Below, piece after piece: positions 7,157-64,000 of a stretch of 64,000 bases of DNA (position 1 is its first letter; the number at the start of each line of letters is the position of its first letter). Both the position numbers and the translations under genes were made by a program. The stretch comes from a virus (lineage: Duplodnaviria; Heunggongvirae; Uroviricota; Caudoviricetes), in the IMG/VR virus record IMGVR_UViG_3300025310_000004, positions 59,759 to 123,758 of that record; one strand, written 5' to 3'. The notes under the pieces were generated by a model, which was given only the letters and a program-made list of their open reading frames with translations, did not search any database and was not told where the DNA came from.

Positions 7157-7560
7157 CAGAAGGGTTCCCCCTGGTTGACCCGATCCAGGGTCAACTGCAC
7201 CCCAGGGTTGTTGGGGTGGTCGGGGTTGATCTGCACCATGGTGATGGATGCCTGCCACTGCTCTCCGCCATCGATCAGGGGGGCAAGACGCTCAGCCACG
7301 GTGCGCGGGACGTGCCCGATCATGCCCTGGTTGCCCAGGGATGGCACATGCACCTCAATGGCGTTGGCGTCGAACTCGTTGTTGGGGTTGCGGATGAGCA
7401 CTGCCGGAAGTGGCTCAGGATCGGTTCCCTGGCCGAACTTCGCTGGCGTCGTCAGGAAGCGCTCAGCCGCGATGTCATTGAGGCGGAAGATGTTACCGGG
7501 GTAGCCCGGCACGAAGGTGACGCCGACCACCTTGGTCTTGAACTGATCGGGCAGAGCCAT
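7156..7560 (-). CDS. HIRAN-domain protein
   Basis: VVGVTFV..., NPNNEFDANAIEV and GHVPRTVAERLAPLIDGG match the HIRAN consensus. Confidence 0.6.
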   Translation of the reverse strand: MALPDQFKTKVVGVTFVPGYPGNIFRLNDIAAERFLTTPAKFGQGTDPEPLPAVLIRNPNNEFDANAIEVHVPSLGNQGMIGHVPRTVAERLAPLIDGGEQWQASITMVQINPDHPNNPGVQLTLDRVNQGEPF

Positions 7561-18515: not shown

Positions 18516-19008
18516 TCTCTCGCTTGGTGAGCCGAGCGACGTAGGAGTGGTCCATGCTCAACTCCTCAGCGATCGCCCGGTAGGTCCATCCCTGGGAGCG
18601 CAACTCCACCATGCGGCGCAAGTCGTCGGGCGTCGTCCGGCGATACCCGGAGAAGTTGTCTCCCGCCGCCTTGCGGGCTCGGTACTCCCGCATGTAGGTG
18701 GCCTTCGCCGATGTCGATGGCACCCTGGGGTTGGTGGGCCTCGGCTTGCGGGTCGCGACCTTCTTGACGGGAGGGCTTGCGGCCTGCTCTGTCTTGGTGG
18801 CCTTCTTCCTCCTGGCGCACACCGAACAAGCGCAGTCGTTGCGACCTCGACACCGATGATGTGAGCCGGAGAGGCAGTTGGTGCAGGTGATCACGCCGCC
18901 ACCATAGCAATCCACTGAGACATGTCGCACCCATGATGTATGGTGTGGACCCCGACGAAAGGAGGCCCCCATGATCGACCTGCACGCTCTATTCGCACCC
19001 GACGACAT
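18481..19008 (-). CDS. Zn-finger + C-terminal HTH (sigma-70 region-4/LuxR-like) regulator
   Basis: N-terminal Cys clusters, basic linker and WTYRAIAEELSMDHSYVARL. The 3' end overlaps tRNA-Ser on the opposite strand. Confidence 0.55.
   Translation of the reverse strand: MSSGANRACRSIMGASFRRGPHHTSWVRHVSVDCYGGGVITCTNCLSGSHHRCRGRNDCACSVCARRKKATKTEQAASPPVKKVATRKPRPTNPRVPSTSAKATYMREYRARKAAGDNFSGYRRTTPDDLRRMVELRSQGWTYRAIAEELSMDHSYVARLTKREMAEGRGLEPQG
18923..18944 (+). promoter_or_regulatory. conserved promoter motif TGTCGCACCC-N6-TATGGT (copy 3)
   Basis: This copy has a ~20-nt leader with GAAAGGAGG SD before the ATG at 18971. Confidence 0.45.
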
Positions 19009-19849
19009 CCAGGCCGCTCTGGACGCTGGGCACCTGCTCTCGCAGACCCACCCCGAGTTCGACCTGACGATCTACAACTACTCGTCGCTGTGCCAGATCA
19101 GCCGCGCCTGGACCCCGGTCACCTCGTCGTGCCGGGGCATGATCGTCGGTCCCGACGGCAAGGTGCTGGCTCGGCCGTTCCCGAAGCGCTACAATCATCA
19201 GATGGCGCGATTCTCAAGCACCCCCGAAGCCGCAGCGATCGATCACGAGTTCTTTGGGACCGGGAAGCCCGAGGCTGATTGGCTAGCCGGGCTTGTGGCG
19301 GCGGATGGCTGCATCAAGAACGAGAAGTTCTGGACCATCACACAGTCGGGGGATCACGGACTTGAGTTGATTGAAGCGGTCAGGGGCATGATCAACCATG
19401 GCCTGTCTGTTGGTCACTACAAGCCCAAGCGGGGACGAGTGGCTCATTCGATCTACGTTCCGTCGGCCCAGATGGTGGCAGACCTGGCGACCAACTACAG
19501 CATCACGCCCCGTAAGAGCCTCACGTTGACTCCCCCCACATTGGACGAAAGTCGGTTCTCTAACTTCCTGAGGGGCTACATCGACGGAGACGGCACCGTG
19601 GGGAGATACTCGGTGGGGCGCTGTCCGAACTACCTGATCGTATGCTTGGTCGGAACCGAGGACTTCATCGAATCGGTACACCACCTCAACGAGTCCGGGC
19701 GCGTGAGGGAACTCAAGAGGGCCAAGAATACTTGGGAGATCAGGTTCAACGGGAATCACGCCGTTGACTTCTGTCGTCGGACATATGCGGCTGGGAGCGA
19801 CCTTCCTGTCACGACCAAGGCGAAGAAGGCTTTGGGAGCAATCGGATGA
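18971..19849 (+). CDS. LAGLIDADG homing endonuclease fused to a duplicated RNA-ligase N-terminal segment
   Basis: The first ~100 aa parallel the N-terminus of ORF 19846 (HPEFDL.IYNY...CRG.IV). Then LAGLVAADGCI and LRGYIDGDGTV dodecapeptide motifs. Confidence 0.6.
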   Translation: MIDLHALFAPDDIQAALDAGHLLSQTHPEFDLTIYNYSSLCQISRAWTPVTSSCRGMIVGPDGKVLARPFPKRYNHQMARFSSTPEAAAIDHEFFGTGKPEADWLAGLVAADGCIKNEKFWTITQSGDHGLELIEAVRGMINHGLSVGHYKPKRGRVAHSIYVPSAQMVADLATNYSITPRKSLTLTPPTLDESRFSNFLRGYIDGDGTVGRYSVGRCPNYLIVCLVGTEDFIESVHHLNESGRVRELKRAKNTWEIRFNGNHAVDFCRRTYAAGSDLPVTTKAKKALGAIG

Positions 19850-20940
19850 ATCACATTGGCGAGTTCTTGGATTTGGCCTCCCTGGATGCCCACATCGAAG
19901 CGGGCAACATCTCTCGATCCCCACATCACGAATTCGACCTCTACGTCCTGAACTACACGAACCAGGCGCAGTTCTCTCGCTCGTGGGACAACGAGACGCT
20001 TAATTGCCGGGGCCTGATTGTTGACTCGGGCGGTCTGGTCGTTGCTCGAAGTTGGGCCAAGTTCTTCAACCACACCGAGACGGCCGTCCCCAAGTACGCC
20101 CTGACCACGCCGCCCATCGTCACCGAGAAGATGGATGGCTCGCTGGGGATCATCTACCAGCGTCCCGATGGGCGCTTCGCCGTCGCCACGCGTGGCTCGT
20201 TCGCGTCTGACCAGGCCGTCTGGGCAACGCAGTGGCTCACCGTCGAGATGCCGGGGTTCATCCAGCCTGCTGGTGTGACCACCCTGGTGGAGATCATCTA
20301 CCCCGAGAACCGGATCGTTGTGGACTACGGCGACCGTGCGGAGTTGGTGCTGCTGGGTGCCATCAACATCGCCACCGGAGCCGACATCCCCCTGTGGGAG
20401 ATCGACTGGTGGCCTGGTGCTCGCGCCGAGATGCACACCGGCATCGGCCACATGGACGACGTGTACCGCTTCGCGACGGGCAACGAGAAGGAGAACGATG
20501 AGGGCATCGTGGCGGTCTGGTACCGCCCCGGCGAGCCGTCGTTCCGGCTCAAGGTGAAGCACCCCGAGTACGTCCGGCTCCACCGGATCATCACGGGCAT
20601 CAATACCAAGCGCGTCTGGGAGGTGCTGGCTTCTGGCGGCGACTTCTACGACGTACTGGATCGTGTCCCCGACGAGTTCTACGGCTGGGTCAAGGGGGTC
20701 ATCACTGACCTCCGCAACCAGTACCAGGACATCGAGGATGCGGTCTATGAGCAGTTCCAGATCATCTGCCTCAACACCGACGACGGCGACCGCAAGGGCT
20801 TCGCCGCCAAGGCCAAGGCCACGCCGTGGCCGGGGTTGATGTTCGCCCTGCTCGATGGCAAGGACATCGAGCGTGCCATCTGGGACATGATCAAGCCCAA
20901 GGCCGAGAAGCCCTTCGCTGACCAGGGTGAGGACACCTGA
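19846..20940 (+). CDS. RNA ligase (Rnl-type nucleotidyltransferase)
   Basis: KMDGSLG motif I lysine. Sits beside a Pnkp gene. Confidence 0.7.
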   Translation: MNHIGEFLDLASLDAHIEAGNISRSPHHEFDLYVLNYTNQAQFSRSWDNETLNCRGLIVDSGGLVVARSWAKFFNHTETAVPKYALTTPPIVTEKMDGSLGIIYQRPDGRFAVATRGSFASDQAVWATQWLTVEMPGFIQPAGVTTLVEIIYPENRIVVDYGDRAELVLLGAINIATGADIPLWEIDWWPGARAEMHTGIGHMDDVYRFATGNEKENDEGIVAVWYRPGEPSFRLKVKHPEYVRLHRIITGINTKRVWEVLASGGDFYDVLDRVPDEFYGWVKGVITDLRNQYQDIEDAVYEQFQIICLNTDDGDRKGFAAKAKATPWPGLMFALLDGKDIERAIWDMIKPKAEKPFADQGEDT

Positions 20941-21006
20941 TCCTCCCCTGGTCAGTGTCGCAGTGGTGTGCTACTATCACGCCACGCCAAGAGAGAGGAG
21001 ACACCC

Positions 21007-21864
21007 ATGGCACGACTCATCATCACCCGAGGTCTACCGGCATCGGGCAAGTCCACCTGGGCGATCGAGCAGATCGCCAAGAACCCCGGTCGCACCATCC
21101 GTGTCAACCGGGATGACATCCGCGCCTCGATCCATGGCGGCGGCAAGTGGTCCAAGACCAAGGAGAAGGCGACCGTTGCAGTTCGCGACGCCATGATCCG
21201 TGCTGGTCTGGCGCAGGGCCTCACGGTCATCTGCGACGACACGAACCTGCCCCAGAAGGTCGTGGACGACCTGACCTTCCTGGCGCACGAGGCCAAGGCC
21301 GATGTGCTGGTGCAGGACTTCACCCACGTCTCGCCCGAGGAGTGCATCAAGCGTGACCTCGCCCGTGAGCGCACGGTGGGGGCCGAGGTCATCATGCGGT
21401 GGTACAACGACTTTCTCAAGCCGGACATGACCGTCACCGTGGATGAGTCCAAGCCCAAGTGCGTCATCGTGGACGTGGACGGCACCCTCGCCCTCCACGT
21501 CGCTCGCGGCCCCTTCGAGTACGACAAGTGCTCGACGGACGCTCCCAATCCCCGTGTGGTCGAGTTGATCAAGATGCTCCGCTCGACCTACGAGGTGGTG
21601 GTGTGCTCTGGCCGTGAGGGCACCGATCAGTGCCGCGCTGACACCATCGAGTGGCTGCAGCGTCACGGCATCACCTTCTCGGGGTTCTTCATGCGCCCCG
21701 AGGGTGACATGCGGAAGGACGCCATCATCAAGCGCGAGATTCTGGAACGGGACATCCTCCCGCGCTGGAACCCTGTGCTGGTGGTGGACGACCGCGATCA
21801 GGTCGTCCGCATGTGGCGCGATGCCGGGCTGACCTGCTGGCAGGTCGCCGACGGCAACTTCTGA
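21007..21864 (+). CDS. pnkp: polynucleotide kinase-phosphatase (T4 Pnkp-like)
   Basis: N-terminal P-loop GLPASGKST and C-terminal HAD motif VIVDVDGTLA. Confidence 0.8.
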   Translation: MARLIITRGLPASGKSTWAIEQIAKNPGRTIRVNRDDIRASIHGGGKWSKTKEKATVAVRDAMIRAGLAQGLTVICDDTNLPQKVVDDLTFLAHEAKADVLVQDFTHVSPEECIKRDLARERTVGAEVIMRWYNDFLKPDMTVTVDESKPKCVIVDVDGTLALHVARGPFEYDKCSTDAPNPRVVELIKMLRSTYEVVVCSGREGTDQCRADTIEWLQRHGITFSGFFMRPEGDMRKDAIIKREILERDILPRWNPVLVVDDRDQVVRMWRDAGLTCWQVADGNF

Positions 21865-24538: not shown

Positions 24539-24560
24539 TGTCGCACCCGGCTGCTATGTT
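24539..24560 (+). promoter_or_regulatory. conserved promoter motif TGTCGCACCC-N6-TGcTATGTT (copy 6)
   Basis: ATG at 24567, six nt after the -10. Confidence 0.5.
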
Positions 24561-24566
24561 GCAGCC

Positions 24567-25256
24567 ATGAACGTGATCCTGCAAGGGGTTGTCGGCTCAA
24601 CCGCCTACGGCCTCGCTACCCCAACTTCCGACATCGACCGCCTCGGCGTGTTCCAAGCCCGCACCTCTGAGTTGCTGGGCCTGCATCCGCCCAAGGAGTC
24701 GCGCGTCTCGACCAACCCGGACGTGACCCACCACGAGTTGGGCAAGTTCGTGAAGTTGTGCCTGGCGAACAACCCCACGGTGATGGAGTTGCTCTGGCTT
24801 GACGAGTACGAGGTGATGACCCCCCTGGGTGAGCGCCTCATCGAGCATCGTCAGTCCTTCATGTCGCAGCGCATCCGCAAGACCTACGGTGGCTATGCCC
24901 GCCAGCAGTTCGAGCGGCTGATGCGTCGTGAGGAGGCCGAGCCGGGCGCTGGCTTCGCTGCCGACCTCAAGAAGCGCACCGAGAAGCACGCCCGCCACTG
25001 CTACCGCCTCATCCTGCAGGGCACCCATGCGCTTCGCACGGGTGAGTTGCGGGTGCGGCTGACTTCTGAGGAAGTTCAGATGTGCCGTGAGGCTGGGCTG
25101 ATGGCAGCCAATGACGTGGTGGAGTTCGGCAAGTCCGTCGAGATCGCCATGGCCGAGTTCGATGCCACCCCCACGGACCTCCCTGAGCATCCCGACGATG
25201 CGGACGCGAACTCGATGCTCGTGGTGGCTCGCACGCTCGATCTCACCGCTCCCTGA
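24567..25256 (+). CDS. Pol-beta-superfamily nucleotidyltransferase
   Basis: VVGSTAYGLATPTSDIDRLGVF GS..D.D motif. Confidence 0.65.
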   Translation: MNVILQGVVGSTAYGLATPTSDIDRLGVFQARTSELLGLHPPKESRVSTNPDVTHHELGKFVKLCLANNPTVMELLWLDEYEVMTPLGERLIEHRQSFMSQRIRKTYGGYARQQFERLMRREEAEPGAGFAADLKKRTEKHARHCYRLILQGTHALRTGELRVRLTSEEVQMCREAGLMAANDVVEFGKSVEIAMAEFDATPTDLPEHPDDADANSMLVVARTLDLTAP

Positions 25257-27360: not shown

Positions 27361-27995
27361 CATGCGAGTTGAGATTCGCCCCGGTGAAGGGGGTGAGGAC
27401 GCCCAGCGCTTCGCCAAGGAGTGCCTTTGACGCGTTCTGCAAGGCGGCCCGCCGACGTGGGCTTGAGCCAGCAGTCAGCGAGTCCGCTCGCACCATGATC
27501 TTGGAGATCGCCGACATCTCCTTCCTTGAGCCCTTCGTCGGCACCCACCGCGTGCAGCGCATCCCCAAGGGGGAGCAGCGCCGTCACACCTCGACGGCCA
27601 CGGTTGCGATCGTCGGCCAGGTAGACAATGACGACTTCATCCCCGATGAGGAAATCGAGGAGCGGTTCGATCGCGGTGGCGGCAAGGGTGGCCAGCACCA
27701 GAACACCACCGACTCGGCGGTGACCCTCACCCACACCCCCACCGGGATCACGGTCCACATCGAGGGACGCAAGCAGTGGGGCAACCGCCAGGAAGCACGT
27801 CGGGTGCTATCCGAACGGGTAGCAGCCCATCGCCGAGCAGAGGCGTTGCGGATGTGCAACGACCAGCGGCGCGCCCAGATCAACCCGGAGCGCTCCGCCA
27901 AGTCGTTCACCCACAACACTCAGCGCAACGAGGTGGTGGACCACGACTCGGGTCGGTCGTGGCGGCTCACCGAGTTCCATAAGGGCAAGTTCTGA
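27361..27995 (+). CDS. prfH-like: class-I release-factor homologue lacking domain 1 (RF-H/PrfH-like); full length requires +1 frameshift at CUU UGA C
   Basis: Frame A gives MRVEIRPGEGGEDAQRFAKECL then TGA. The +1 frame continues DAFCKAARRRG...HRVQRIP...GGQHQNTTDSAVTLTHTPTGI. AAGGAG sits 3 nt upstream of CTT. Confidence 0.65.
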
Positions 27996-28017
27996 TGTCA
28001 CAGCCATCCGCTATGGT

Positions 28018-28827
28018 GTGCCGATGGCCAGGATGCTCGTACTCGGTGACACGCACGGCGACGTGAAGTTCTTGGAGCGCGCCTGCCGGATGGCCGTGAA
28101 GTCCGACTGCGACCGCATCGTCCAGGTCGGCGATTGGGGCTTCCTGTGGCCAGGAGCGAAGAACGATCGCCTCAAGGCGATCACCAACGTGTTGGCGCAG
28201 TTCGACCTCCACATGTTCTTCCTCGACGGCAACCATGAGTGGTATGGCCGCTTGGAGGAGATGGGGGCGACCCCCGATGCTCCCCACATGGTTGCGCTGT
28301 CGGATCGGGTCGCCTACTTGCCTCGTGGCTTCACTTGGGCTTGGGGCGGCGTGACCTTCATGTCGCTTGGCGGTGCCTTCTCCATCGACCAGGACCAGCG
28401 GACCAAGTTCATCGACTATTGGCCCCAGGAGACGATCCGTTACGCGGACGCTGACCGTGCCATTGCCGCTGGGCATGTGGACGTGATGTTCACCCACGAC
28501 GTTCCCGAGGGCGTTGTCAAGTTGGAGGCGATGCTGCATCGCGCCAGTGATCACTACCGGAGGTCCTACGGGGCCAAGTGGAACTACAAGTTGGACCCCG
28601 GCAGCCGGGCCAACCGCAAGACGTTGCGCGCCGTCGTTGACGAGGTGCAGCCCTTCTTGCTGATCCACGGCCACTACCACTGGCGCTACGACGACACCTT
28701 GGTGGGCGAGGACTACACCACCGAGGTGCGCGGCCTTGACTGCAACGGCTCGGGCGAGAGGGCCTGGGGAGTCGTGGATACGGCCGATGTCTTGAGATGG
28801 AGACTTGTCGTTGACGACGACGAATGA
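28018..28827 (+). CDS. calcineurin-like metallophosphoesterase
   Basis: GDTHGD, GDWG, DGNHE and GHYH motifs. Confidence 0.75.
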   Translation: MPMARMLVLGDTHGDVKFLERACRMAVKSDCDRIVQVGDWGFLWPGAKNDRLKAITNVLAQFDLHMFFLDGNHEWYGRLEEMGATPDAPHMVALSDRVAYLPRGFTWAWGGVTFMSLGGAFSIDQDQRTKFIDYWPQETIRYADADRAIAAGHVDVMFTHDVPEGVVKLEAMLHRASDHYRRSYGAKWNYKLDPGSRANRKTLRAVVDEVQPFLLIHGHYHWRYDDTLVGEDYTTEVRGLDCNGSGERAWGVVDTADVLRWRLVVDDDE

Positions 28828-29013: not shown

Positions 29014-29158
29014 TCGTAGACATGTACCGATTGCTCCCCCTCCTACGGCCACTCAAGGCCAAGCCTGGGCATCAGCGCCCGCGCCATGCTGCGCGACCGC
29101 TGAATCCCCAGCAACAGGGGTAGAGCACCTTCTCTCCCCCTGTGGCCTGAGAAGGTCT

Positions 29159-29242
29159 TGCGGGGGTGGCGTAACTGGCAGCCGCGCCGGGTTTAGGTCC
29201 CGGTGGCCGAGAGGTCGTGAGGGTTCGAGTCCCTCCTCCCGC
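29159..29242 (+). tRNA. tRNA-Leu(TAG)
   Basis: Anticodon stem CCGGG/CCCGG. Anticodon loop TTTAGGT. 15-nt variable arm. Confidence 0.65.
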
Positions 29243-29246
29243 ACCG

Positions 29247-29333
29247 AGTGCCCGTGGCGGAACTGGTAGACGCGTTGTCCTCAGAAGGCAATGTCCGCAA
29301 GGGCGTGAGGGTTCGACTCCCTCCGGGCACACC
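29247..29333 (+). tRNA. tRNA-Leu(CAG), CCA encoded
   Basis: Acceptor GTGCCCG/CGGGCAC. Anticodon loop CTCAGAA. Confidence 0.7.
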
Positions 29334-29334
29334 A

Positions 29335-29420
29335 AGTCAGCATGGTGGAATGGTAGACACGCCGTCTTGAGGGGGCGGTGGCCGCAAGGTCGTGAGGGTT
29401 CGACTCCCTCTGCTGACACC
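29335..29420 (+). tRNA. tRNA-Leu(GAG), CCA encoded
   Basis: Acceptor GTCAGCA/TGCTGAC. Anticodon loop TTGAGGG. Confidence 0.7.
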
Positions 29421-29445
29421 AAACGCAAGAAACGCAACAAGATCA

Positions 29446-29527
29446 AGCCCGAGTGGCGGAACTGGCAGACGCGCTCGTCTCAAGAACGAGTGACCTAGGT
29501 CGTGTGGGTTCGACTCCCACCTCGGGC
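29446..29527 (+). tRNA. tRNA-Leu(CAA)
   Basis: Anticodon stem CTCGT/ACGAG. Anticodon loop CTCAAGA. Confidence 0.7.
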
Positions 29528-29560
29528 ACGCAAGGCTCTTTGACAACAGAAGATCACCGA

Positions 29561-29585
29561 TACAACGGGACGGGGTGACGGCTTG
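29561..29585 (+). repeat. duplicated 5' fragment of tRNA-Pro(CGG) (CAACGGGACGGGGTGACGGCTTGG)
   Basis: 24/25 identity with 30021-30045 at the start of the intact tRNA-Pro downstream of the HNH gene. Confidence 0.6.
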
Positions 29586-29600
29586 GATTAGACGGCAACG

Positions 29601-29606
29601 CTATAA
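29601..29606 (+). promoter_or_regulatory. perfect TATAAT -10 box 8 nt upstream of HNH ATG
   Basis: Seen directly. The surrounding sequence has lower GC. Confidence 0.4.
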
Positions 29607-29614
29607 TCTAATCC

Positions 29615-30037
29615 ATGACGATCACCCAGAAGTGCAAGCGCTGCGGAAAGCGGCGTGAACACGGACTCCGACGCAATGGCAGTGCTCAGGCGTACTGCCG
29701 TCAGTGTCAGAGGGAATACAGCAAGAGTCACTACGAAACCAACAAGGGTTCGTACAACGGCAGGAGGTTGAAGCACCAACGGCAGCGACGCCAAGACGGA
29801 TACAAGATCACGAACTCGGCCAAGGATCGCCCTTGCGTCGATTGCGGGGTCAAGTACCCGACCTACGTCATGCAGTTCGATCATCGGGACCCGACGACCA
29901 AGAACTTCACGATTGCCACCCATGTTCGCAATGGTGGCTCCTTGAAGGCGCTGATCGCCGAGATCGAGAAGTGTGACGTGGTTTGTGCGAATTGTCATGC
30001 CGAAAGGACGCATCAACAACGCAACGGGACGGGGTGA
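29615..30037 (+). CDS. HNH homing endonuclease
   Basis: MQFDHRDP and CANCHAERTH HNH motif. The gene has lower GC than its flanks. Confidence 0.8.
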   Translation: MTITQKCKRCGKRREHGLRRNGSAQAYCRQCQREYSKSHYETNKGSYNGRRLKHQRQRRQDGYKITNSAKDRPCVDCGVKYPTYVMQFDHRDPTTKNFTIATHVRNGGSLKALIAEIEKCDVVCANCHAERTHQQRNGTG

Positions 30038-30102
30038 CGGTTTGGTTGCACGCCGCGTTCGGGACGCGGAGGTCGCGGGTTCAAATCCCGCCGTCCCGAC
30101 CA
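30025..30102 (+). tRNA. tRNA-Pro(CGG), CCA encoded
   Basis: Acceptor CGGGACG/CGTCCCG. Anticodon loop TTCGGGA. The 5' end overlaps the HNH stop. Confidence 0.65.
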
Positions 30103-30103
30103 T

Positions 30104-30176
30104 CGGAAGGTGGTGACAAGCGCACAGCGGCCGTTGGGGCCGCAGGACCGGGGGTAGCGTCCCGGCTTTCCGACCA
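30104..30176 (+). pseudogene. cloverleaf tRNA-like with non-canonical loops (T-loop GGTAGCGT, anticodon loop CGTTGGG), CCA encoded
   Basis: Acceptor CGGAAGG/CTTTCCG. All four helices are present. Confidence 0.35.
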
Positions 30177-30177
30177 A

Positions 30178-30249
30178 CGGGTAGGTGCCGGATGGCAAGG
30201 CACTCGGTTTGGGGCCGAGACTAAGGAGGTTCGATTCCTCTCTACCCGA
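30178..30249 (+). tRNA. tRNA-Pro(TGG)
   Basis: Anticodon stem CTCGG/CCGAG. Anticodon loop TTTGGGG. Confidence 0.65.
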
Positions 30250-30254
30250 CTTGA

Positions 30255-30323
30255 TCGATGGTGGCCGCAATTGGTAGCGGTAGCCCGACGGGGTTTGTGC
30301 GGGTTCGAGTCCCGTCCATCGAT
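30255..30323 (+). pseudogene. tRNA-like with canonical acceptor/T-arm but collapsed anticodon arm
   Basis: Acceptor TCGATGG/CCATCGA and T-arm GCGGG-TTCGAGT-CCCGT. Internal CCCGACGGG. Confidence 0.3.
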
Positions 30324-30330
30324 CAACCAT

Positions 30331-30406
30331 TCCGGGGAAGGTTGATGGCATCCTGCCCGCACTCTGAATGCGGACCACGTTGGTTCGATTCCAACCCCCG
30401 GAGCCA
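30331..30406 (+). tRNA. tRNA-Gln(CTG), CCA encoded
   Basis: Anticodon stem CCGCA/TGCGG. Anticodon loop CTCTGAA. Confidence 0.7.
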
Positions 30407-30407
30407 T

Positions 30408-30483
30408 GGTGACCGGAGCCGGATGGAGAGGCGCTTGGTTGTGACCCAAGCAGCAGGGGGTTCGATTCCCCTCGGTCACCCCA
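30408..30483 (+). tRNA. tRNA-His(GTG) with encoded G-1 and C73, CCA encoded
   Basis: G-1 + GTGACCG/CGGTCAC. Anticodon loop TTGTGAC. Confidence 0.7.
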
Positions 30484-30487
30484 TCGA

Positions 30488-30562
30488 TCGGGAGTGGTGT
30501 AACGGCAGCACGCGAGGCTTTGAACCTCGTAGGTGAGGGTTCGAGTCCTTCCTCCCGAGCCA
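30488..30562 (+). tRNA. tRNA-Gln(TTG), CCA encoded
   Basis: Acceptor TCGGGAG/CTCCCGA. Anticodon loop CTTTGAA. Confidence 0.7.
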
Positions 30563-30591
30563 ACGTCACAGCGACATGATACTATAGGAGA

Positions 30592-30744
30592 ATGCTAGGT
30601 AACCGAAAGAACCGAGGTCGCCACGGCGATAGGTACTGCCCCTACGGGTGCTGCCGCAGCCTGGTGACCGGCAAGAAGTCCAAGACCCGCCGCATCTTGC
30701 GGACCCGCGACAAGCGGGCCTGGGTCAAGGACCAGCGCAACTGA
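30592..30744 (+). CDS. small basic Cys-containing protein (50 aa)
   Basis: AGGAG SD. MLGNRKNRGRHGDRYCPYGCCRS... Below the ORF-track cutoff. Confidence 0.3.
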   Translation: MLGNRKNRGRHGDRYCPYGCCRSLVTGKKSKTRRILRTRDKRAWVKDQRN

Positions 30745-30748
30745 TCGT

Positions 30749-30824
30749 TCCGGGGTGGCCGATAGGCAAGGCGGCTCCCTGTTAAGGAGTTTCAATGTGG
30801 GTTCGAGTCCCACCCCCGGAGCCA
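30749..30824 (+). tRNA. tRNA-Asn(GTT), CCA encoded
   Basis: Anticodon loop CTGTTAA. T-arm GTGGG-TTCGAGT-CCCAC. Confidence 0.7.
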
Positions 30825-30825
30825 A

Positions 30826-30900
30826 CCCGAGATGGCGTAGCAGGCAACGCGGCTGGCCGTTAACCAGCAGTGGGGGGTTCAAGTCCTTCTCTCGGGGCCA
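30826..30900 (+). tRNA. tRNA with GTT anticodon and C33 (second Asn-like), CCA encoded
   Basis: Anticodon stem GCTGG/CCAGC. Anticodon loop CCGTTAA. Confidence 0.45.
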
Positions 30901-30901
30901 T

Positions 30902-30979
30902 CCAGGTGTAGCAAACGTTGGCATTGCACCCGCCTCTTAAGCGGACTAAACGTGGGTTCGATTCCCGCCGCCTGGACCA
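30902..30979 (+). tRNA. tRNA-Lys(CTT), CCA encoded
   Basis: Anticodon loop CTCTTAA. T-arm GTGGG-TTCGATT-CCCGC. Confidence 0.6.
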
Positions 30980-30980
30980 A

Positions 30981-31055
30981 CCGCCTCAAGCATTGATGGT
31001 GATGCACCCGACTCTTAATCGGGAGAGCAGGTTTCGAGTACCTGGGGGCGGACCA
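30981..31055 (+). tRNA. tRNA-Lys(CTT) second copy, CCA encoded
   Basis: D-stem GCAT/ATGC. Anticodon stem CCCGA/TCGGG. Anticodon loop CTCTTAA. Confidence 0.6.
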
Positions 31056-31086
31056 TGAGAACGAAACCAACGCCAACTCCAATCTC

Positions 31087-31158
31087 GGGGGTATGGCGTA
31101 GCGGTAGCGCACCGGACTTTTAATCCGAGAGGCCAGGGTTCGATCCCCTGTGCCCCCA
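31087..31158 (+). tRNA. tRNA-Lys(TTT)
   Basis: Acceptor GGGGGTA/TGCCCCC. Anticodon loop CTTTTAA. Confidence 0.6.
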
Positions 31159-31179
31159 CTGCACCCAGGAGGTGACCCA

Positions 31180-31323
31180 TGGCGAAGTATCTTCGCAAGG
31201 CGCAGGAGCGCCTGGCCAAGCGCATCAAGGCATACGAGGAGGACACCAAGGGTGCCTCTGGCAAGTCCTCCGGCCGCAAGCGGCCCGGCAGCCTCAAGAC
31301 GCGCCGCTAGATAAGGGTGTCAT
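31180..31323 (+). CDS. small basic protein (47 aa, MAKYLRKAQERLAKRIKAYEED...)
   Basis: AGGAGG SD. Below the ORF-track cutoff. Confidence 0.35.
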
Positions 31324-33796: not shown

Positions 33797-35404
33797 ATGG
33801 CCAAGTTCTCGAACACCAAGCCCGCGCCGCGCAAGCGTGCGACGGCCCCGACGAAGGTGACCGGCACCCGCCTCGCTACGCACGAGGGCGGCACCGGCTA
33901 CGCCAAGGACGACAAGACGGCCCTCTACACGCTGGCCGTCACCAACATGGTCGGCGAGCCGACCTTCTACGAGTCCGGCAAGGACCGTGACGACCGCTTC
34001 CGCACCCTGGTGCGGCGCGTGACCACGCAGGACCCCACCTGGGTCGCCGGGTTCATCGGCTTCCTCCGCAACGAGGCCAACATGCGGTCGGCATCGATCG
34101 TCGTGGCTGCCGAGGCGGCCAAGACCCTGCTCGACCTGCGCGCCAAGGGCGTCGAGGTGGACGGCAACGTGCGCTCAATCATCGCTTCGGCGTGCGAACG
34201 TGCCGATGAGCCTGCAGAGATGCTGGGCTACTGGCTCGCCAACTACGGCCGCGCCCTGCCCATGGGCGTCAAGCGCGGCATCGGCGACGCGGCTGTGCGT
34301 CTCTACACCGAGCGCAACGCTCTCAAGTACGACGGCGGAAGCCGTGGCGTGCGGATGGGCGACGTGCTCAACCTGACCCACCCCACCCCTGGTGCGGCCT
34401 GGCAGTCGGACCTGTTCCGCTACCTGCTGGACCGCCGTCACGGGCACGCCGAGGGCGTGGTCCCCGAGACGCTGGCGACCATCCTCGCCGCAACCGACCT
34501 CGACGCGACCCCCGAGGGTCAGCGTCGTGCGCTCCTGCGTGAGCGTGGCCCCGAGGCTCTGGCCGACGCGGGCTACACCTGGGAGCGCCTGAGCGGCTGG
34601 CTGCCCGGCGGCATGGACGCCGAGGCGTGGGAGGCCATCATCCCCTCGATGGGGTATATGGCCCTGCTGCGGAACCTCCGCAACTTCGAGCAGGCCAAGG
34701 TGGAGAAGGCCGTCCTCAAGGGCGTGGCCGACCACCTGGCTGACCCCGAGGCTGTGGCCAAGAGCCGTCAGTTCCCGTACCGCTTCTTCTCGGCGTGGAA
34801 GGCGTCGGGCAGCACCTTCTTCGGTGCTGCGCTTGAAGCGGCGCTGGACGAGTCGGTCAAGAACCTCCCGATCTTCTCGGGGCGCACCCTGGTCGCCATC
34901 GACACCAGCGGCTCGATGCAGTCGCCCGTGTCGGGCCGCAGCCAGGCGCAGTGCTACGAGGTGGGCGCGCTGTTCGGCTCTGCCGTGGCCGCTCGCTCCG
35001 ACTGCGACGTGATCCTCTACGCGGATCGCTGGGACTGGTTCACCCCCGAGGTGTCCGTCCTGCGTTCGGTGGAGAAGGTCCGTCGTCTGATCGGCGAGGT
35101 CGGGTACGGCACCAACACCTGGCCGTCCGTCGCCCAGGCGTTCGCCAACAAGGGCGGCTATGACCGCATCGTGGTCATGACCGACTGCCAGGACCACCCG
35201 GCTCGTGGTGGCCTCTACGGCCACCGCGACACCAGCACGCTGCCGGATGTCCCGATCTACGTCTGGGACCTCCGCGGCTACGAGGCCACCAACATCGACA
35301 ACACGCCGGGGCGCTACCTGTTCGGAGGCTTCTCCGACGCGGCGTTCAAGATGATCGCTCTCATCGAGCGCGGTCAGAACGCCGAGTGGCCCTGGCTCGA
35401 CTGA
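33797..35404 (+). CDS. rsr: Ro60/Rsr orthologue (TROVE domain + vWA domain)
   Basis: N-terminal TROVE-like region and C-terminal vWA MIDAS DTSGSM. GAAAGGAG SD. Confidence 0.75.
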   Translation: MAKFSNTKPAPRKRATAPTKVTGTRLATHEGGTGYAKDDKTALYTLAVTNMVGEPTFYESGKDRDDRFRTLVRRVTTQDPTWVAGFIGFLRNEANMRSASIVVAAEAAKTLLDLRAKGVEVDGNVRSIIASACERADEPAEMLGYWLANYGRALPMGVKRGIGDAAVRLYTERNALKYDGGSRGVRMGDVLNLTHPTPGAAWQSDLFRYLLDRRHGHAEGVVPETLATILAATDLDATPEGQRRALLRERGPEALADAGYTWERLSGWLPGGMDAEAWEAIIPSMGYMALLRNLRNFEQAKVEKAVLKGVADHLADPEAVAKSRQFPYRFFSAWKASGSTFFGAALEAALDESVKNLPIFSGRTLVAIDTSGSMQSPVSGRSQAQCYEVGALFGSAVAARSDCDVILYADRWDWFTPEVSVLRSVEKVRRLIGEVGYGTNTWPSVAQAFANKGGYDRIVVMTDCQDHPARGGLYGHRDTSTLPDVPIYVWDLRGYEATNIDNTPGRYLFGGFSDAAFKMIALIERGQNAEWPWLD

Positions 35405-48056: not shown

Positions 48057-48406
48057 TGGGTCGATACAGCCGTTACCCCGCCGTCAATCGTGAGGTTCCT
48101 TCGGAGGACCCGGAGGAACTCATCGATAGCGAGGAGGAACCGGAGGAACCGACCTACACCGAGCCGGTCGAGGTCGCTCCCGAGGTTGATGACGTTGTTG
48201 TCTCCGAGCCCGACACCGAGGTGTCGAATGAGGGCGACAACCAGGATGGGGTCGATTGGCCCTCTCCGACCGCCCTGGGTGAGATGTCAACCAGGGAGGT
48301 GCTCAAGTGGGTTGGTGACGACCCTGATCGGGCAGCCTATGCGGCAGGCGTCGAGGAGGCTGGCCGAGAGCGCAAGACGCTCCTCCGCAAGTTGCGTGGA
48401 GCATAG
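48041..48406 (+). CDS. acidic hypothetical protein
   Basis: 121 aa, Glu/Asp-rich. Confidence 0.4.
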   Translation: MGASLMGRYSRYPAVNREVPSEDPEELIDSEEEPEEPTYTEPVEVAPEVDDVVVSEPDTEVSNEGDNQDGVDWPSPTALGEMSTREVLKWVGDDPDRAAYAAGVEEAGRERKTLLRKLRGA

Positions 48407-48471
48407 ACACACCTGCAAGGGACACCAGCCTACAATGGCGGTGATCGGTCAAGCCTAGGAGGCAAAGACAC

Positions 48472-49269
48472 ATGGCAATCTGCTGCCCCAAGTCCATCAA
48501 GGCGTGTGCCATGCGGATCACGCGCCAGGACGAGTGCGACATCGCCCTCGATCCCCTAGTCCCCAACAGCCGCATCCAGACGGCAGGCTTCATGGAGTTG
48601 AACCTGTCGCCGGATGTTGAGTCTGGTGAGGACATCACCACCAAGAACGCCTGCGGCGACATCTGCATCCGTGACAAGGACTGCGACCGCCTCAAGGGCT
48701 TCGAGGTCGAACTCAAGTTGTGCGGCGTCCCCCTACCCGTGATCGAGATGCTCACGGGCGCCACGCTCCTATCTGACGGTGCCGGTGGGTTCAACGGCGC
48801 CGTCATGCGGGAGTCCAAGGACGCCGCGTGCGAGAACTCCAAGGCGTTGGAGTTCTGGTCCAAGAACGCTGACAAGGGCGTGTGCGCCGTGGATGGTTCG
48901 ATCTCGAACCTCTACATCCATTGGGTGCTCCCACGCACGATCAATTGGGAGATCAGTGGTGGCCTGAACTTCACCACCGGCCCCCTTGAGATCACCTTGA
49001 TGGGCTACGCCGAGAACAACCCGCTGTGGTTCCCGTCGTACCCCGGTGTGGACTTCCCGTCCTACGTCCCCGGTGGTGGCGATCCCACCAGCCACCCGGT
49101 CGGCCCGCCCCCGCCCGTCCTGCCTCCGCAGGTCACGGCGGACCCGTGGACCTTGGCCGACCAGGCAGCCATCCAGGCGGGCGGCCCGCTGGCCTGGAAG
49201 TGCGTCCCGGCTCTCCCGACGCCGATCGATGACTGCGGCTACGTCCCGGTCACGGCGGCTTCTTCCTGA
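48472..49269 (+). CDS. Cys-rich structural protein, paralogue B
   Basis: Same N-terminus MAICCPKSIKACA.RITR as ORF 44608. Confidence 0.5.
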   Translation: MAICCPKSIKACAMRITRQDECDIALDPLVPNSRIQTAGFMELNLSPDVESGEDITTKNACGDICIRDKDCDRLKGFEVELKLCGVPLPVIEMLTGATLLSDGAGGFNGAVMRESKDAACENSKALEFWSKNADKGVCAVDGSISNLYIHWVLPRTINWEISGGLNFTTGPLEITLMGYAENNPLWFPSYPGVDFPSYVPGGGDPTSHPVGPPPPVLPPQVTADPWTLADQAAIQAGGPLAWKCVPALPTPIDDCGYVPVTAASS

Positions 49270-60458: not shown

Positions 60459-63400
60459 GTGTATTCAGGGTACCTCTACTTCAACTCCACCGAGATCGCC
60501 AACAACCAACGCGTCGTCGCGTACCTGAACGGCAACCCGTCCCTGGGAATCCCTGGCCTCAAGAGCCCGAACCTCTCGGTGTCTCCGTCCTGTGGGTGTG
60601 ACGCACTGTGCCTCTATTGTGACCAGGGCTCCGGGGAGGGCGGTGCCTTCGTTTCTCCGAAGTTGGATGACGCCCCCTGGTACGACCCAGACGTGCCAGA
60701 TTCGGAGTCCTTCGCTGGATTCTTCATCGAGGACATCACCGGGTTCGACTCGGTAGTGAGGCGCGATTTCTCTGATGGGGCGATCTCGGGCGGATCGCTT
60801 GGGCCACTTCGCCTGTCGGGTCGCTGCATGACCGTCACCGGATGGCTGATGGCCTCCACTTGCTGTGGCGCTGAGTACGGGTTGCGCTGGCTGCAGGAAG
60901 CGCTCATGGGCAACGTGTGCGATGAGTGCGCCTACGGCGATCTCTACATGATCAAGTGCTGCCCCCCCGAGGGGGACACCTGCCACACGGTAGAAGTCGG
61001 CGCGACGGACACGGTGCCAGACACCACCGTCCCCTTCTCGGTCACCAACAACGCCGACGGCACCTACACCTTCTTCATCGATGATGCCCTGCAGGCAAAC
61101 CTGATCTCCGATCCAGACGGGCTCATCAACAACACCGATGGACCGATCCCCGCCTGCTATGGGGCCGGGAACACCTTCCGCTTCGTCCTGGCGGATGACC
61201 TGGGGGCCATCTTCACCTTCCTCATCCCGTTCGAGGCCATCACGTCTGCCGTCACTTCACCGTCGGGTAACGGGGCCGACATGACCTTCGTTGTTGACAC
61301 CAACGTCGTGGGTTCTTGTGATGACGTGGTTCGCAGCATCGAGAAGTTCACCACCCAGGTGACCGAGTACCTCTCCACCTACTCCTCAGCCGAGTTGGTC
61401 GATCTCACGTCGCCGACGCAGGTGCGGTGCTTCGAGACGCGTGAGGGCTACAACCCAGACGACTACGTTCGTCTCCTCCATCGCGTTGGCCTCACCGAAG
61501 GTCCGACGGTCTTGGAGCGCCTCGGCACTTGCTGTGAGTCCAACTGCGGATGCGTCTACCTCAAGGTGGAGTTCACGCTGTGCTCGGAGTCTCCCTACAT
61601 CTTCTCCGACATCGATTGGTGCATCGAGGGCGAAACCTTCGACTTCGATGAGTGCTACTGCCTCGACACCCGCAGGCTGTGCAACATCTGCTCCACTCAG
61701 GACGCGACCAAGTTCGTTGAGCGTGAGACGCGGCGTCCCAACTGCCCGATCACGTTGAGGTACGACCAGACGTGGTGTCCTGAGCAGTGGCCGGATGGGG
61801 TTGAGGACTGCCCTCCGGTTGACTGCCTTCTGACCATCGGAAGCCTTGAGGAGTTCGAGCCGGAGGACAACTCCGAGACGACCACTGGAACGGCAACGGG
61901 TGAGAACACCCTGTTGGTCAACCTCAATGCCGACTTCACTTGGTCGCCTATTGGCTTCAACCCCGAGGATGGGTTCCCGCCCGACTTTGCCGATCTCTAC
62001 CTGTTCAACGGCGGCAACTGCTGGCAGCCCTTCGAGAATCCCTACAGCGTCGATGGCGGCACTAGCGATTGCGACTACTTCGTAACGCTTGGGCCTCCTG
62101 GCTCCTACACATGGTCGCCGTTCTTGTGGAACCCGGTTGCCACCGGATTCCCACCCGAGCCATGCGCCATCTCGATCGTGCCAAGCCTGTGCGAGTGCCC
62201 CACCACTTCGCCTCGCCCCGAGCCGCCCGACACTGATCCCCCAACGCCTGACCCGGTGATCGATTGCGGTGGGGGCATCTGGTACAACCCCGAGGACTGC
62301 ACGCGTGGGTGCGACCCGTGCGGAGCCTGCAACACCTGCAAGCCAGACTGTGGCACCGATGGTGAGCCCATCAGGGCTCCGATCAGGTTGATCTGGAACA
62401 AGGCCAACAACACCTATCGGTTCGAGATTCTCACCTTCGTCACTGGTGCTGGCGGTGTCACCGGCTACGGCAACATCGACTGCTTCGAGATCACCGAGTA
62501 CGTCGTTGAGGGAGTGAAGCCCTGTTTGGTTCGCCTGATCTACGACGAGGGAACCAAGTCTCAAACGTGGGAACCCATTCGTTGGTCTGGATCGCTGCCA
62601 GCCCCATCGGACTGCGATTGCATCCAGATCGCTGAGATCGTTGTCAACAAGACGGAAACGCTTGATTGCGTTGATGCCACGGACTGCCCGATCAACGTGC
62701 AGTGCGATGTCGAGTGGCGTCCCGAGGACTGCACCACCCGTCAGGCCATGTGCGCGTTCTTCTACCGCCTCAACGGATCACCACCGTTCGTCCCTCCGAC
62801 TACTCCGACCTTCTCCGACGTTCCCACCAGCAACGCCTTCTACACCGAGATCGAGTGGGCCTATGCCCAGGGGCTCACTGATGGCTTCGGGGATGGAACG
62901 TTCCGTCCCGAGAACTCGGTGTCTCGTCAGGCGGCGGCTGCCTTCTTCTATCGCGACGCTGGTGAACCGGCCTTCACCCTCCCCTACAACCAGACCTTCT
63001 CCGACGTTGACCCGACCCACCCCTTCTACACCGAGATCGAGTGGGTGGCGGATCAGTGCATCTTCTTCGGGTATGGCGACGGGACCTACCGCCCTGAGGA
63101 CTGCCTGACGCGTCGCTCGGCCGCCATCACCATCTACCGATACGGTGGCGGAAAGCCTTCGTACTCTGACGTTGACCAGACCCACCCGTTCTTCAATGAG
63201 ATCGAGTGGGCTCGCGACCAGCGCATCTTCTGTGGGTACGGGGATGGCACTTTCCAGCCTGGGAACGATCTGTCGCGCCGGATCGCTGCGGTCAACTTCT
63301 ACCGCGATGCAGGGGAGCCTGCGTTCGTTCCTCCTGGCGTCCCGACCTTCTTGGATGTCCCCACCACCGATCCTCAGTACCTTGAGATCGAGTGGGCCTA

Positions 63401-64000
63401 TGCCCAGAACATCTTCGATGGTTTCCCTGGTCCGAACTTCCAGCCTGACGCCGACCTGTCGCGCCAGGCCGCAGCCGCAGCGTTCTATCGCTACAACGGG
63501 TCACCAGCCTTCGTTCCCCCTGGCGTTCCCACCTACACGGATGTCCCCCTGATCCACCCCTTCTATCTTGAGATCGAGTGGTGCACCTTCGCATCCATCA
63601 TGTTCGGCTTCGGCGATGGCACGTTCCGACCCACCGATCCGACCACGCGTCAGTCGATGGCTACCTTCTTCTACCGCAATGCTGGCAGCCCTCCCTACGC
63701 TCCTGTTGTCTACACCCCGACGCTGCCTCCCCACTTCTTCGATGTGCCTGAAACCGATCCTCAGTTCCAGCAGATCGAGTGGATGTACGACCAGGGGATC
63801 GGGTTCGGCTTCGTGGCATCGAAGTCCTGGCAGCCCATTGGTTGGGCTCTCGATCCCGATGCGGCCTTCCCTCCCGAGAACTGCAACCTCTACATCGCCA
63901 CGATCAACGGCGAGGAACCGGACACCAGCCCTATCAAGGAGTTGGTGGAGGTTCCATGGGATGAGTTCGTTCCCGACTGTGGGCCGTTCCCATCCGCCCC
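60459..64000 (+). CDS. minor tail protein with six C-terminal SLH-like repeats (3' partial)
   Basis: No stop from the GTG at 60459 to the window end. Repeats F.DV....PFY.EIEW...Q.I..GYGDGTFRP....SR..AA..FYR begin at ~62790. Confidence 0.6.
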   Translation, partial: MYSGYLYFNSTEIANNQRVVAYLNGNPSLGIPGLKSPNLSVSPSCGCDALCLYCDQGSGEGGAFVSPKLDDAPWYDPDVPDSESFAGFFIEDITGFDSVVRRDFSDGAISGGSLGPLRLSGRCMTVTGWLMASTCCGAEYGLRWLQEALMGNVCDECAYGDLYMIKCCPPEGDTCHTVEVGATDTVPDTTVPFSVTNNADGTYTFFIDDALQANLISDPDGLINNTDGPIPACYGAGNTFRFVLADDLGAIFTFLIPFEAITSAVTSPSGNGADMTFVVDTNVVGSCDDVVRSIEKFTTQVTEYLSTYSSAELVDLTSPTQVRCFETREGYNPDDYVRLLHRVGLTEGPTVLERLGTCCESNCGCVYLKVEFTLCSESPYIFSDIDWCIEGETFDFDECYCLDTRRLCNICSTQDATKFVERETRRPNCPITLRYDQTWCPEQWPDGVEDCPPVDCLLTIGSLEEFEPEDNSETTTGTATGENTLLVNLNADFTWSPIGFNPEDGFPPDFADLYLFNGGNCWQPFENPYSVDGGTSDCDYFVTLGPPGSYTWSPFLWNPVATGFPPEPCAISIVPSLCECPTTSPRPEPPDTDPPTPDPVIDCGGGIWYNPEDCTRGCDPCGACNTCKPDCGTDGEPIRAPIRLIWNKANNTYRFEILTFVTGAGGVTGYGNIDCFEITEYVVEGVKPCLVRLIYDEGTKSQTWEPIRWSGSLPAPSDCDCIQIAEIVVNKTETLDCVDATDCPINVQCDVEWRPEDCTTRQAMCAFFYRLNGSPPFVPPTTPTFSDVPTSNAFYTEIEWAYAQGLTDGFGDGTFRPENSVSRQAAAAFFYRDAGEPAFTLPYNQTFSDVDPTHPFYTEIEWVADQCIFFGYGDGTYRPEDCLTRRSAAITIYRYGGGKPSYSDVDQTHPFFNEIEWARDQRIFCGYGDGTFQPGNDLSRRIAAVNFYRDAGEPAFVPPGVPTFLDVPTTDPQYLEIEWAYAQNIFDGFPGPNFQPDADLSRQAAAAAFYRYNGSPAFVPPGVPTYTDVPLIHPFYLEIEWCTFASIMFGFGDGTFRPTDPTTRQSMATFFYRNAGSPPYAPVVYTPTLPPHFFDVPETDPQFQQIEWMYDQGIGFGFVASKSWQPIGWALDPDAAFPPENCNLYIATINGEEPDTSPIKELVEVPWDEFVPDCGPFPSA

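Follow-up and report, generated by a model that had tools for sequence, protein, structure and literature searches.

A free-standing HNH endonuclease gene at the 5′ end of a phage tRNA-Pro gene, and a truncated tRNA copy that is probably its repair scar

How does a complete endonuclease gene come to lie between two tRNA genes of a phage, with a fragment of the downstream tRNA repeated on its other side? The question is raised by a 64,000-nucleotide (nt) stretch of a Caudoviricetes genome (IMG/VR record IMGVR_UViG_3300025310_000004, positions 59,759 to 123,758; hereafter the window), a genome segment in which 37 tRNA genes, all on one strand, occupy ∼17.9–31.2 kilobases (kb). Phage tRNA arrays are now viewed as counter-defence cargo against tRNA-cleaving bacterial immunity. 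In this array, a gene for a 140-amino-acid (aa) HNH endonuclease (29615–30037, forward strand, as are the tRNAs, repeats and hairpin located below) separates tRNA-Leu(CAA) from tRNA-Pro(CGG) and is preceded by an orphan copy of the first 21 nt of that tRNA-Pro. A sequence-only reading of this DNA had taken the arrangement for a recent mobile insertion that copied or targeted the 5′ end of the tRNA. We consider it probable, on comparison with related sequences, that the gene is a free-standing homing endonuclease gene (HEG) of the HNH type, from a lineage at home in phage tRNA arrays, that it was inserted at the 5′ end of tRNA-Pro(CGG), and that the orphan stub is a scar of break repair.

Three related contigs without the gene define the empty site, a comparison that the sequence-only reading had called for. 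Cultured phages were of little help: a megablast search with the locus found no match in 50,697 phage records, and tblastn with a 552-aa structural protein found distant Streptomyces and Saccharomonospora phages only, so there is no close cultured relative. Two of the contigs (L049 and L050) came from a scan of JGI metagenomes with the neighbouring metallophosphoesterase (61% identity). The third (L053) came from a scan of IMG/VR with a generic tRNA-Pro T-arm pattern, which also matched >100 unrelated contigs; neither the tRNA 21-mer nor the phosphoesterase found anything in IMG/VR. Two further assemblies, the JGI metagenome contig Ga0073934_10000284 (150.6 kb; 3300006865), compared over selected stretches, and ENA ERZ27247351, which also carries the same HNH protein (P0001), are identical to the window and thus add no variant.

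All three relatives keep the tRNA order Leu(CAG)-Leu(GAG)-Leu(CAA)-Pro(CGG)-Pro(TGG)-Gln(CTG). Each has one tRNA-Pro(CGG), 25–30 nt past tRNA-Leu(CAA), with neither an HNH gene nor a repeat between the two. The left neighbour of the insertion site in the window is tRNA-Leu(CAA) at 29447–29529 (ARAGORN; Rfam tRNA, 54 bits), whose ortholog stands immediately 5′ of tRNA-Pro(CGG) in L050 and L053. After it comes the resident, ancestral Leu-Pro spacer with its tRNA-Pro leader (29530–29565), which aligns with the 25–30-nt spacers of L050 and L053 and has in common with the relatives' spacers ‘ttgacaac’, ‘agatca’ and a ‘caa’ just 5′ of the tRNA start. It is the stub copy that occupies the ancestral position, and the downstream copy belongs to the working tRNA. 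Relative to the empty sites, ∼459 nt have been added between tRNA-Leu(CAA) and tRNA-Pro(CGG): the HNH gene, the 28 nt in front of it, and another copy of the leader with tRNA nt 1–21. Because the relatives lack both the HNH gene and the repeat, gene and duplication arrived together, as one 459-nt insertion. A repeat pair without any HNH gene, the outcome that the sequence-only reading had named as fatal to itself, was looked for in L049/L050 and L053 and was not seen. Sporadic presence at a syntenic locus, a defining trait of HEGs, is what the empty sites in L049/L050 and L053 reveal for this gene.

The repeat has a 24-nt core with one mismatch, CAACGGGACGGGGTGACGG(C/T)TTGG, at 29563–29586 and 30022–30045. 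The earlier description (25 nt, at 29561–29585 and 30021–30045) was right about the repeat but not about its length, and it began the first copy two bases too far left. Extended without gaps, the repeat covers 34 nt at 85% identity (29553–29586 and 30012–30045), with a spacing of 459 nt. Its local alignment score of 43 compares with 13.9 ± 2.1 (maximum 23) in 200 shuffles, and at ≤3 mismatches the 21-mer occurs three times in the window against zero times in 100 shuffles. Repeat diagonals of ≥24 nt with ≤1 mismatch, within 1 kb, number seven in the 64 kb; four link tRNA paralogs and two fall in coding repeats near 62.8 kb.

The upstream copy (copy A, 29553–29586) comprises the resident leader (−13 to −1) and nt 1–21 of tRNA-Pro(CGG) (29566–29586), an orphan 5′ stub that ends just past the GG of the D-loop. 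The downstream copy (copy B, 30012–30045) comprises the leader ATCAACAACGCAA and nt 1–21 of the functional tRNA-Pro(CGG). Its 24-nt core corresponds to positions −3 to +21, which hold the 5′ strand of the acceptor stem and the D arm up to the D-loop GG of an intact gene with encoded CCA (ARAGORN, 30025–30102), just as the sequence-only reading had placed it. Comparison of this tRNA with its counterparts in L050 and L053 shows compensatory changes in the acceptor and anticodon stems. In Rfam, the retained match over the gene is a sub-threshold one to the transfer-messenger RNA (tmRNA) clan (30036–30102, 32.9 bits), with no separate RF00005 row. At ∼90% identity to its orthologs, tRNA-Pro(CGG) is the best conserved tRNA of its block. 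Unusual divergence from the orthologs, looked for as a possible sign of import, was not seen.

The two copies differ at five of their 34 positions, and four of the five mismatches lie within six leader positions (CCGATA versus ACAACG). The copy B leader ATCAACAACGCAA agrees at 12 of 13 positions with the non-coding leader of the HNH-less L053, ATCAACAACACAA. In the D-loop the stub has a C, a base shared by the three relatives without the HNH gene and by tRNA-Pro(GGG) of the window; the working tRNA-Pro(CGG) beside the HNH gene has a T. By their sequences, then, the two copies look like two different alleles. They have the acceptor sequence CGGGACG in common (the relatives have CGGGTAG, with compensatory 3′ changes), and this sharing of a lineage-specific form points to a fairly close relative as donor. 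Of the earlier idea of a recent mobile insertion, the insertion holds, given the empty sites and a sporadic, tRNA-tied family of homologs; ‘recent’ is not borne out, given the five differences in 34 and the distance of the relatives. A 10-nt repeat between spacer and start of the open reading frame (ORF), GAAGATCACC and GACGATCACC, is no more than chance would give in a region of 800 nt and was set aside.

The inserted gene bears the marks of an HNH nuclease. It matches PHROG 2255 and 3106, both ‘HNH endonuclease’ (E = 1e-29 and 1e-24), and by tblastn its product matches 425 phage records, many of them annotated as HNH endonuclease. HNH (His-Me finger) enzymes are marked by a beta-beta-alpha-metal core in which a catalytic His is joined by an Asn and a metal-binding His, often with two CxxC zinc pairs as a brace. 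The invariant residues of a 50-sequence alignment, PCxDCG...FDH...K...E..KC..VCANCH..R, supply two CxxC pairs, the catalytic histidine of the DH motif (D89-H90) and N126/H128. The AlphaFold model, with a pLDDT (the model's own confidence score) of 97, has a zinc ribbon at the N-terminus, then a helix of 42 residues and, at the C-terminus, a beta-beta-alpha unit, the core of the superfamily. The protein had no match in Pfam or NCBIfam at E ≤ 1 and none in a PDB sequence search, and precomputed Pfam domains were absent from its 120 closest homologs. From profile, motifs and predicted fold, which bear out the HNH identity proposed earlier, we take the ORF to be an intact HNH nuclease of a clade missed by current Pfam models.

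The gene has a GC content of 0.567, at the 2.6th percentile for stretches of its size (mean of the window, 0.627), and GC at third codon positions is 0.73 against 0.75–0.88 in eight other genes; the lower GC noted in the sequence-only reading is thus real, and modest. The ORF overlaps tRNA-Pro(CGG) by 13 nt and its TGA stop lies 10–12 nt inside the tRNA. Its last five codons and stop are made of tRNA leader and tRNA sequence, with the leader ATCAACAACGCAA encoding H-Q-Q-R-N.

How could a single event leave both a gene and a stub? In the mechanism that we favour, an endonuclease from a co-infecting, HNH-carrying phage would cut an HNH-less tRNA-Pro(CGG) in or near the D-loop, at about +21. The right-hand end would invade the homologous tRNA-Pro of the donor and copy leftwards, taking in the 5′ part of the tRNA, the leader and the HNH gene. 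The left-hand end (leader plus nt 1–21), finding no homology, would be joined illegitimately and so become the stub. One-sided repair of this kind would explain the stub, the two-allele pattern, and the absence of stubs at most loci, where homology would be available on two sides.

Homologs of the gene lie beside tRNAs in many other phages. Among IMG/VR loci with homologs, 22 of 41 have tRNA genes inside 3-kb flanks. At nine loci (the window, L001 from Myxococcus phage Mx1, L003, L016, L018, L020, L021, L022 and L040) the next tRNA on that strand, of Pro, Lys, Arg, Trp or Leu isotype, starts 19–35 nt after the last CxxCH codon and the ORF stops inside it; in all, this stop-inside-tRNA architecture was found at ≥11 independent loci. 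The homolog nearest to the window gene, that of L172 (53% identity), extends 21 nt into a tRNA-Cys that starts ∼29 nt after CxxCH. The best cultured-phage homolog, 40% identical over its full length and unannotated, is that of Mx1 (OR576727.2, ∼48219–48626; L001, 3022–3429), which lies between tRNA-Gln and tRNA-Lys and stops inside tRNA-Lys. Mycobacterium phage ET08 (L174, NC_013650.1, 90542–91051; with L175–L177) likewise has an unannotated HNH homolog, between tRNA-Pro(TGG) and tRNA-Trp, which reads through the entire tRNA-Trp; this tRNA starts 44 nt after CxxCH. Relative L050 itself has a 113-aa homolog (7180–7521, 36% identity) without the N-terminal zinc ribbon, just past the last tRNA-Lys of its array, and thus different sites of the same array are occupied in different lineages. 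In three database homologs (P0026, P0039 and P0058) the N- or C-terminal extension is plainly translated tRNA (e.g. GVAQLVER...GSSPV), from which it follows that gene callers routinely extend such ORFs into adjacent tRNAs.

Two of these loci besides the window also have an upstream stub that resembles the downstream tRNA. In L022 the stub agrees with tRNA-Lys(UUU) at 33 of 40 nt, reaches through the anticodon loop and gives a 3′-truncated Rfam tRNA match (E = 0.045). In L040 it agrees with tRNA-Lys(CUU), positions 2–22, at 18 of 21 nt and ends at the start codon.

Cultured mycobacteriophages show what such genes may carry along. Among Bxz1-type phages, 8 of 203 records have a homolog between tRNA-Pro(TGG) and tRNA-Trp. 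Between the HNH-positive ET08 and Specks and the HNH-negative Spud and Ghost, tRNA-Pro (from about nt 12), tRNA-Trp and tRNA-Tyr are strongly different alleles, and the outer flanks are 96–99% identical. Judged from these alleles, the pattern is a co-conversion block, the signature of a HEG travelling with its flanking markers, and it concerns the homolog, not the window gene. The window offers one D-loop C/T difference and a different leader allele beside the HNH gene, at a single locus and against distant relatives. The Bxz1-type phages with the homolog offer a ready, culturable system in which to look for homing.

The start of the HNH gene adds a further feature. A predicted RNA hairpin (29573–29628; −24.4 kcal/mol, z = −3.7, with none of 200 shuffles as stable) encloses a candidate −10 box and would sequester the AUG. 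Its inner stem is a perfect 8 base pairs (bp), 29585–29592 with 29607–29614, and ends at the AUG; in its outer stem (6+2 bp) stub nucleotides pair with codons 2–5. The candidate −10 box, TATAAT at 29602–29607, lies in the hairpin loop, ends 7 nt before the ATG and is the sole TATAAT on either strand of the 64-kb window, so the perfect box of its own that had been ascribed to the gene is indeed there. It could serve a leaderless HNH mRNA, and no Shine-Dalgarno sequence precedes the ORF. A sigma-70 promoter scan found no −35/−10 pair, and no terminator. The combination of a start-codon hairpin and a TATAAT within the loop is suggestive of HEG-style control of expression. If the HEGs of phage T4 are a guide, read-through transcripts of the tRNA array would fold the HNH start codon into the hairpin, and a transcript initiated ∼7 nt past the −10 box would be leaderless, hairpin-free and translatable. 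RNase P, cutting at the tRNA 5′ end (30024/30025), would in turn remove the HNH stop codon and limit expression.

A similar spacing, TAnnnT-N6-ATG, precedes three array genes at 24567, 28024 and 30592 (motifs at 24555–24569, 28012–28026 and 30580–30594), which encode a nucleotidyltransferase, a metallophosphoesterase and a 50-aa ORF. The motif suggests leaderless transcripts and an actinobacterial-type host; its overall count is not above that in shuffles.

Several points weigh against the break-repair explanation. The relatives that represent the empty site are far removed (61% identity in the neighbouring phosphoesterase), and neither the order of events nor their age can be reconstructed from them. 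A donor allele with the HNH gene did not turn up; the nearest homolog is the 53% identical one. The putative target and cut position are deduced solely from where the stub ends. Any immunity of the HNH-bearing allele would hang on one C/T difference only, and in the window's tRNA-Pro(GGG) the 21-mer has the ‘sensitive’ C, along with two further mismatches. Most homologs that abut a tRNA, e.g. those of Mx1 and L172, have no stub, and a stub seen by eye in L003, resembling the 5′ half of tRNA-Arg(ACG), was downgraded, with no statistical support and no Rfam match. The conserved C-terminus of the family (ERTHxRR) resembles the leader, which blurs the position of the right-hand junction. Finally, the −10 box has no −35 partner, and the outer stem of the hairpin could be due to chance.

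If stubs are scars, can they be read as footprints? We offer as a tentative idea, which we would not expect to hold as a whole, that tRNA stubs are natural cleavage footprints of a Pfam-invisible HNH clade specialised in phage tRNA arrays, and that the stop inside the tRNA is a selected device. Cuts may fall in the D-loop, at +21/+22 for the window and L040, or past the anticodon arm, at ∼+41 for L022. Members of the clade may land exactly against tRNA 5′ ends and swap whole blocks of tRNA alleles between phages. The stop inside the tRNA, convergent with that of the GIY-YIG enzyme SegB, may tie HEG dosage to RNase P via non-stop mRNA. If true, these HEGs would be a main driver of the shuffling and duplication of phage tRNA repertoires.

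A different question is whether the stub has been kept because it is useful, either as the 5′ arm of a regulatory hairpin or as a processing decoy that silences read-through translation of the HNH gene. We regard this as possible but rather doubtful, and it is compatible with an origin as a scar. In its favour, stub nt 29573–29586 form the 5′ arm of the AUG-enclosing hairpin whose loop holds the window's only TATAAT, and the same hairpin logic has been described for T4 I-TevI-III and proposed for SegB (PMC2330249). However, comparable hairpins are not significant in L022, L040, L172 or Mx1 and are marginal in L003. In addition, the inner 8-bp stem uses only two stub nucleotides, and it is the possibly fortuitous outer stem that uses the others.

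An older duplication is an unlikely source of the stub. The lineage would first have had a tandem tRNA-Pro(CGG) pair, or an HEG-driven array of [HNH + tRNA] units that later collapsed, and the stub would be a decayed paralog, the first copy, which lost its 3′ 57 nt to the HNH gene or to a deletion. SegB-dependent amplification of tRNA + HEG units is documented and unstable, with microhomology between the tRNA 5′ end and the HEG 3′ end (PMC13096335). Other tandem isoacceptor duplicates in the window's array, Asn(GTT) ×2 and Lys(CTT) ×2, also fit. Nonetheless, all three related contigs have a single tRNA-Pro(CGG) here, and two events are needed where repair of a break needs one. Moreover, the window stub ends at nearly the same position as the independent stub of L040 (+21/+22), which a defined break fits better than a random deletion.

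Still less probable, and in our view quite improbable, is a transposon-like target-site duplication, in which a staggered cut of ∼24–34 nt was filled in and the identical copies later drifted. The direct repeats do flank the insert exactly, as such a duplication would. To our knowledge, however, a 24–34-nt stagger is far beyond the range of any HNH enzyme or transposase. Within the insert there is neither a transposase nor a pair of terminal inverted repeats. The clustering of mismatches (four of five in 6 nt) and the 12-of-13 match of the copy B leader to L053 speak for two alleles and against drift. A resemblance by chance, or a generic spacer repeat derived from a tRNA and independent of the HNH gene, is effectively refuted, common as short similar segments are in tRNA arrays, by a score far outside the shuffles, a 21-mer with zero occurrences expected, and relatives that lack repeat and HNH gene alike.

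Other classes of element were examined and rejected. A transposon or insertion sequence finds no place in the ∼0.46-kb insert, where the HNH gene is the only forward ORF of ≥50 aa and no inverted repeat pairs the insert ends. A group I intron or split tRNA was not supported either: no intron family was found in an Rfam scan of 29100–31250 at E ≤ 1, and the downstream tRNA is complete alone, so the stub is redundant. Duplication of an integrase attachment (att) site was rejected because there is no integrase in or beside the insert and the duplicated piece is the 5′ part of the tRNA. Integrase-type insertion of prophages and islands into tRNA genes also yields a short tRNA duplicate and keeps an intact tRNA. 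Unlike here, such elements are kilobases long, encode an integrase and leave a copy of the tRNA 3′ end; the window insert duplicates a 5′ end, measures ∼0.46 kb and has an HNH nuclease as its sole gene.

Which known system does the locus resemble most? By analogy, the best explanation is a homing endonuclease that would target tRNA genes and be functionally like T4 SegB. SegB is encoded in the T4 tRNA cluster, cleaves tRNA genes and has a hairpin over its start region, and maturation of tRNA-Arg cuts between the last and the stop codon of segB (PMC2330249). It drives inheritance of the tRNA region, as well as duplications of tRNA + HEG via microhomology between the tRNA 5′ end and the segB 3′ end (PMC2330249; PMC13096335). 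HEG-driven tandem amplification of [HEG + tRNA] has been shown for T6 SegB (PMC13096335).

The likenesses between the window gene and T4/T6 SegB are many. Both are free-standing nuclease genes in a phage tRNA array, on the tRNA strand and missing from related phages. Both have an ORF end that abuts the next tRNA, so that 5′ maturation would split off the stop, and a hairpin over the start. Both have tRNA genes as targets (presumed ones here) and rearrangements at tRNA 5′ ends, and flanking tRNA alleles may be co-inherited here as they are with SegB. The differences are equally clear. The window protein is an HNH (His-Me finger) enzyme with two CxxC pairs and SegB a GIY-YIG enzyme, so they are not of the same family. 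The T-psi-C motif at tRNA 3′ ends is what SegB recognises; the window stub points instead to the D-loop (+21). In the window the hairpin encloses a candidate −10 box; segB has no promoter mapped nearby. What the locus presents, as far as the analogy carries, is an unrelated nuclease fold in a SegB-like role in high-GC, probably actinobacterial, phages.

Site-specific endonuclease ORFs in a phage tRNA cluster, with expression proposed to be lowered by processing of the primary transcript, go back to 2004 work as it is cited in PMC2330249. Closer kin are the SEA-PHAGES ‘HNH endonuclease’ genes (PHROG 2255/3106) of Streptomyces phages (Karimacvirus and relatives) and of Bxz1-type Mycobacterium phages. 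These belong to the same family at 32–46% identity, have the CxxC...DH...CANCH core in common with the window protein, and in many cases lie in tRNA arrays. The cultured-phage homologs are annotated only as HNH endonuclease or are unannotated (ET08, Mx1), and in the literature as far as we searched it, neither their tRNA-abutting architecture nor stubs are pointed out. We know of no tRNA stub reported at the tRNA-cluster endonuclease ORFs of the 2004 work.

SegB is known to remodel tRNA arrays in T-even phages. The concept of homing is extended here, not changed. What is added is a clean comparison of empty and filled sites, a stub that is a probable cleavage footprint, and a recurrent stop inside the tRNA in an HNH clade. 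ORFs that end in tRNAs, together with occasional stubs, offer cheap target prediction for a clade of uncharacterised site-specific nucleases. Unannotated genes are also flagged in two well-known phages, Mx1 and ET08.

The surroundings of the locus yielded a few observations of their own. Two Logan contigs of an independent assembly, apparently of the same phage (L046 and L047, SRR5581334), end at window positions 29021 and 30074; the contigs of that data set break on either side of the Leu-HNH-Pro stretch and none spans the site. Repeats among the tRNAs, or population variation at the site, could account for the breaks. The tRNA array is interleaved with genes for RNA repair and quality control (18971–21864, 24567–25256, 27495–28827 and 33797–35404), namely an endonuclease/RNA-ligase-like protein, an RNA ligase, a polynucleotide kinase, a nucleotidyltransferase (RlaP), an RF-1-domain protein and a metallophosphoesterase. 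A TROVE (Ro-like) protein farther along belongs to the same set.

Downstream of tRNA-Pro(CGG), at 30254–30323, is a tRNA-like cloverleaf absent from the ARAGORN calls. Its acceptor stem measures 7 bp and is accompanied by D and T arms, and its ‘anticodon arm’ consists of just a 5-bp stem and a 4-nt loop (−35.7 kcal/mol, z = −3.4). Its one Rfam match is a weak tRNA-Sec match (21.8 bits, E = 0.3). It is missing from L050 and L053, where the gap between Pro(TGG) and Gln(CTG) is 27–29 nt, and it could be a decayed tRNA or a tRNA mimic. Finally, a coding region at 62805–63676 holds four diverged direct repeats of ∼84–141 nt (61–73% identity), which encode a recurring FSDV...FYTEIEWA motif that resembles S-layer-homology (SLH) repeats.

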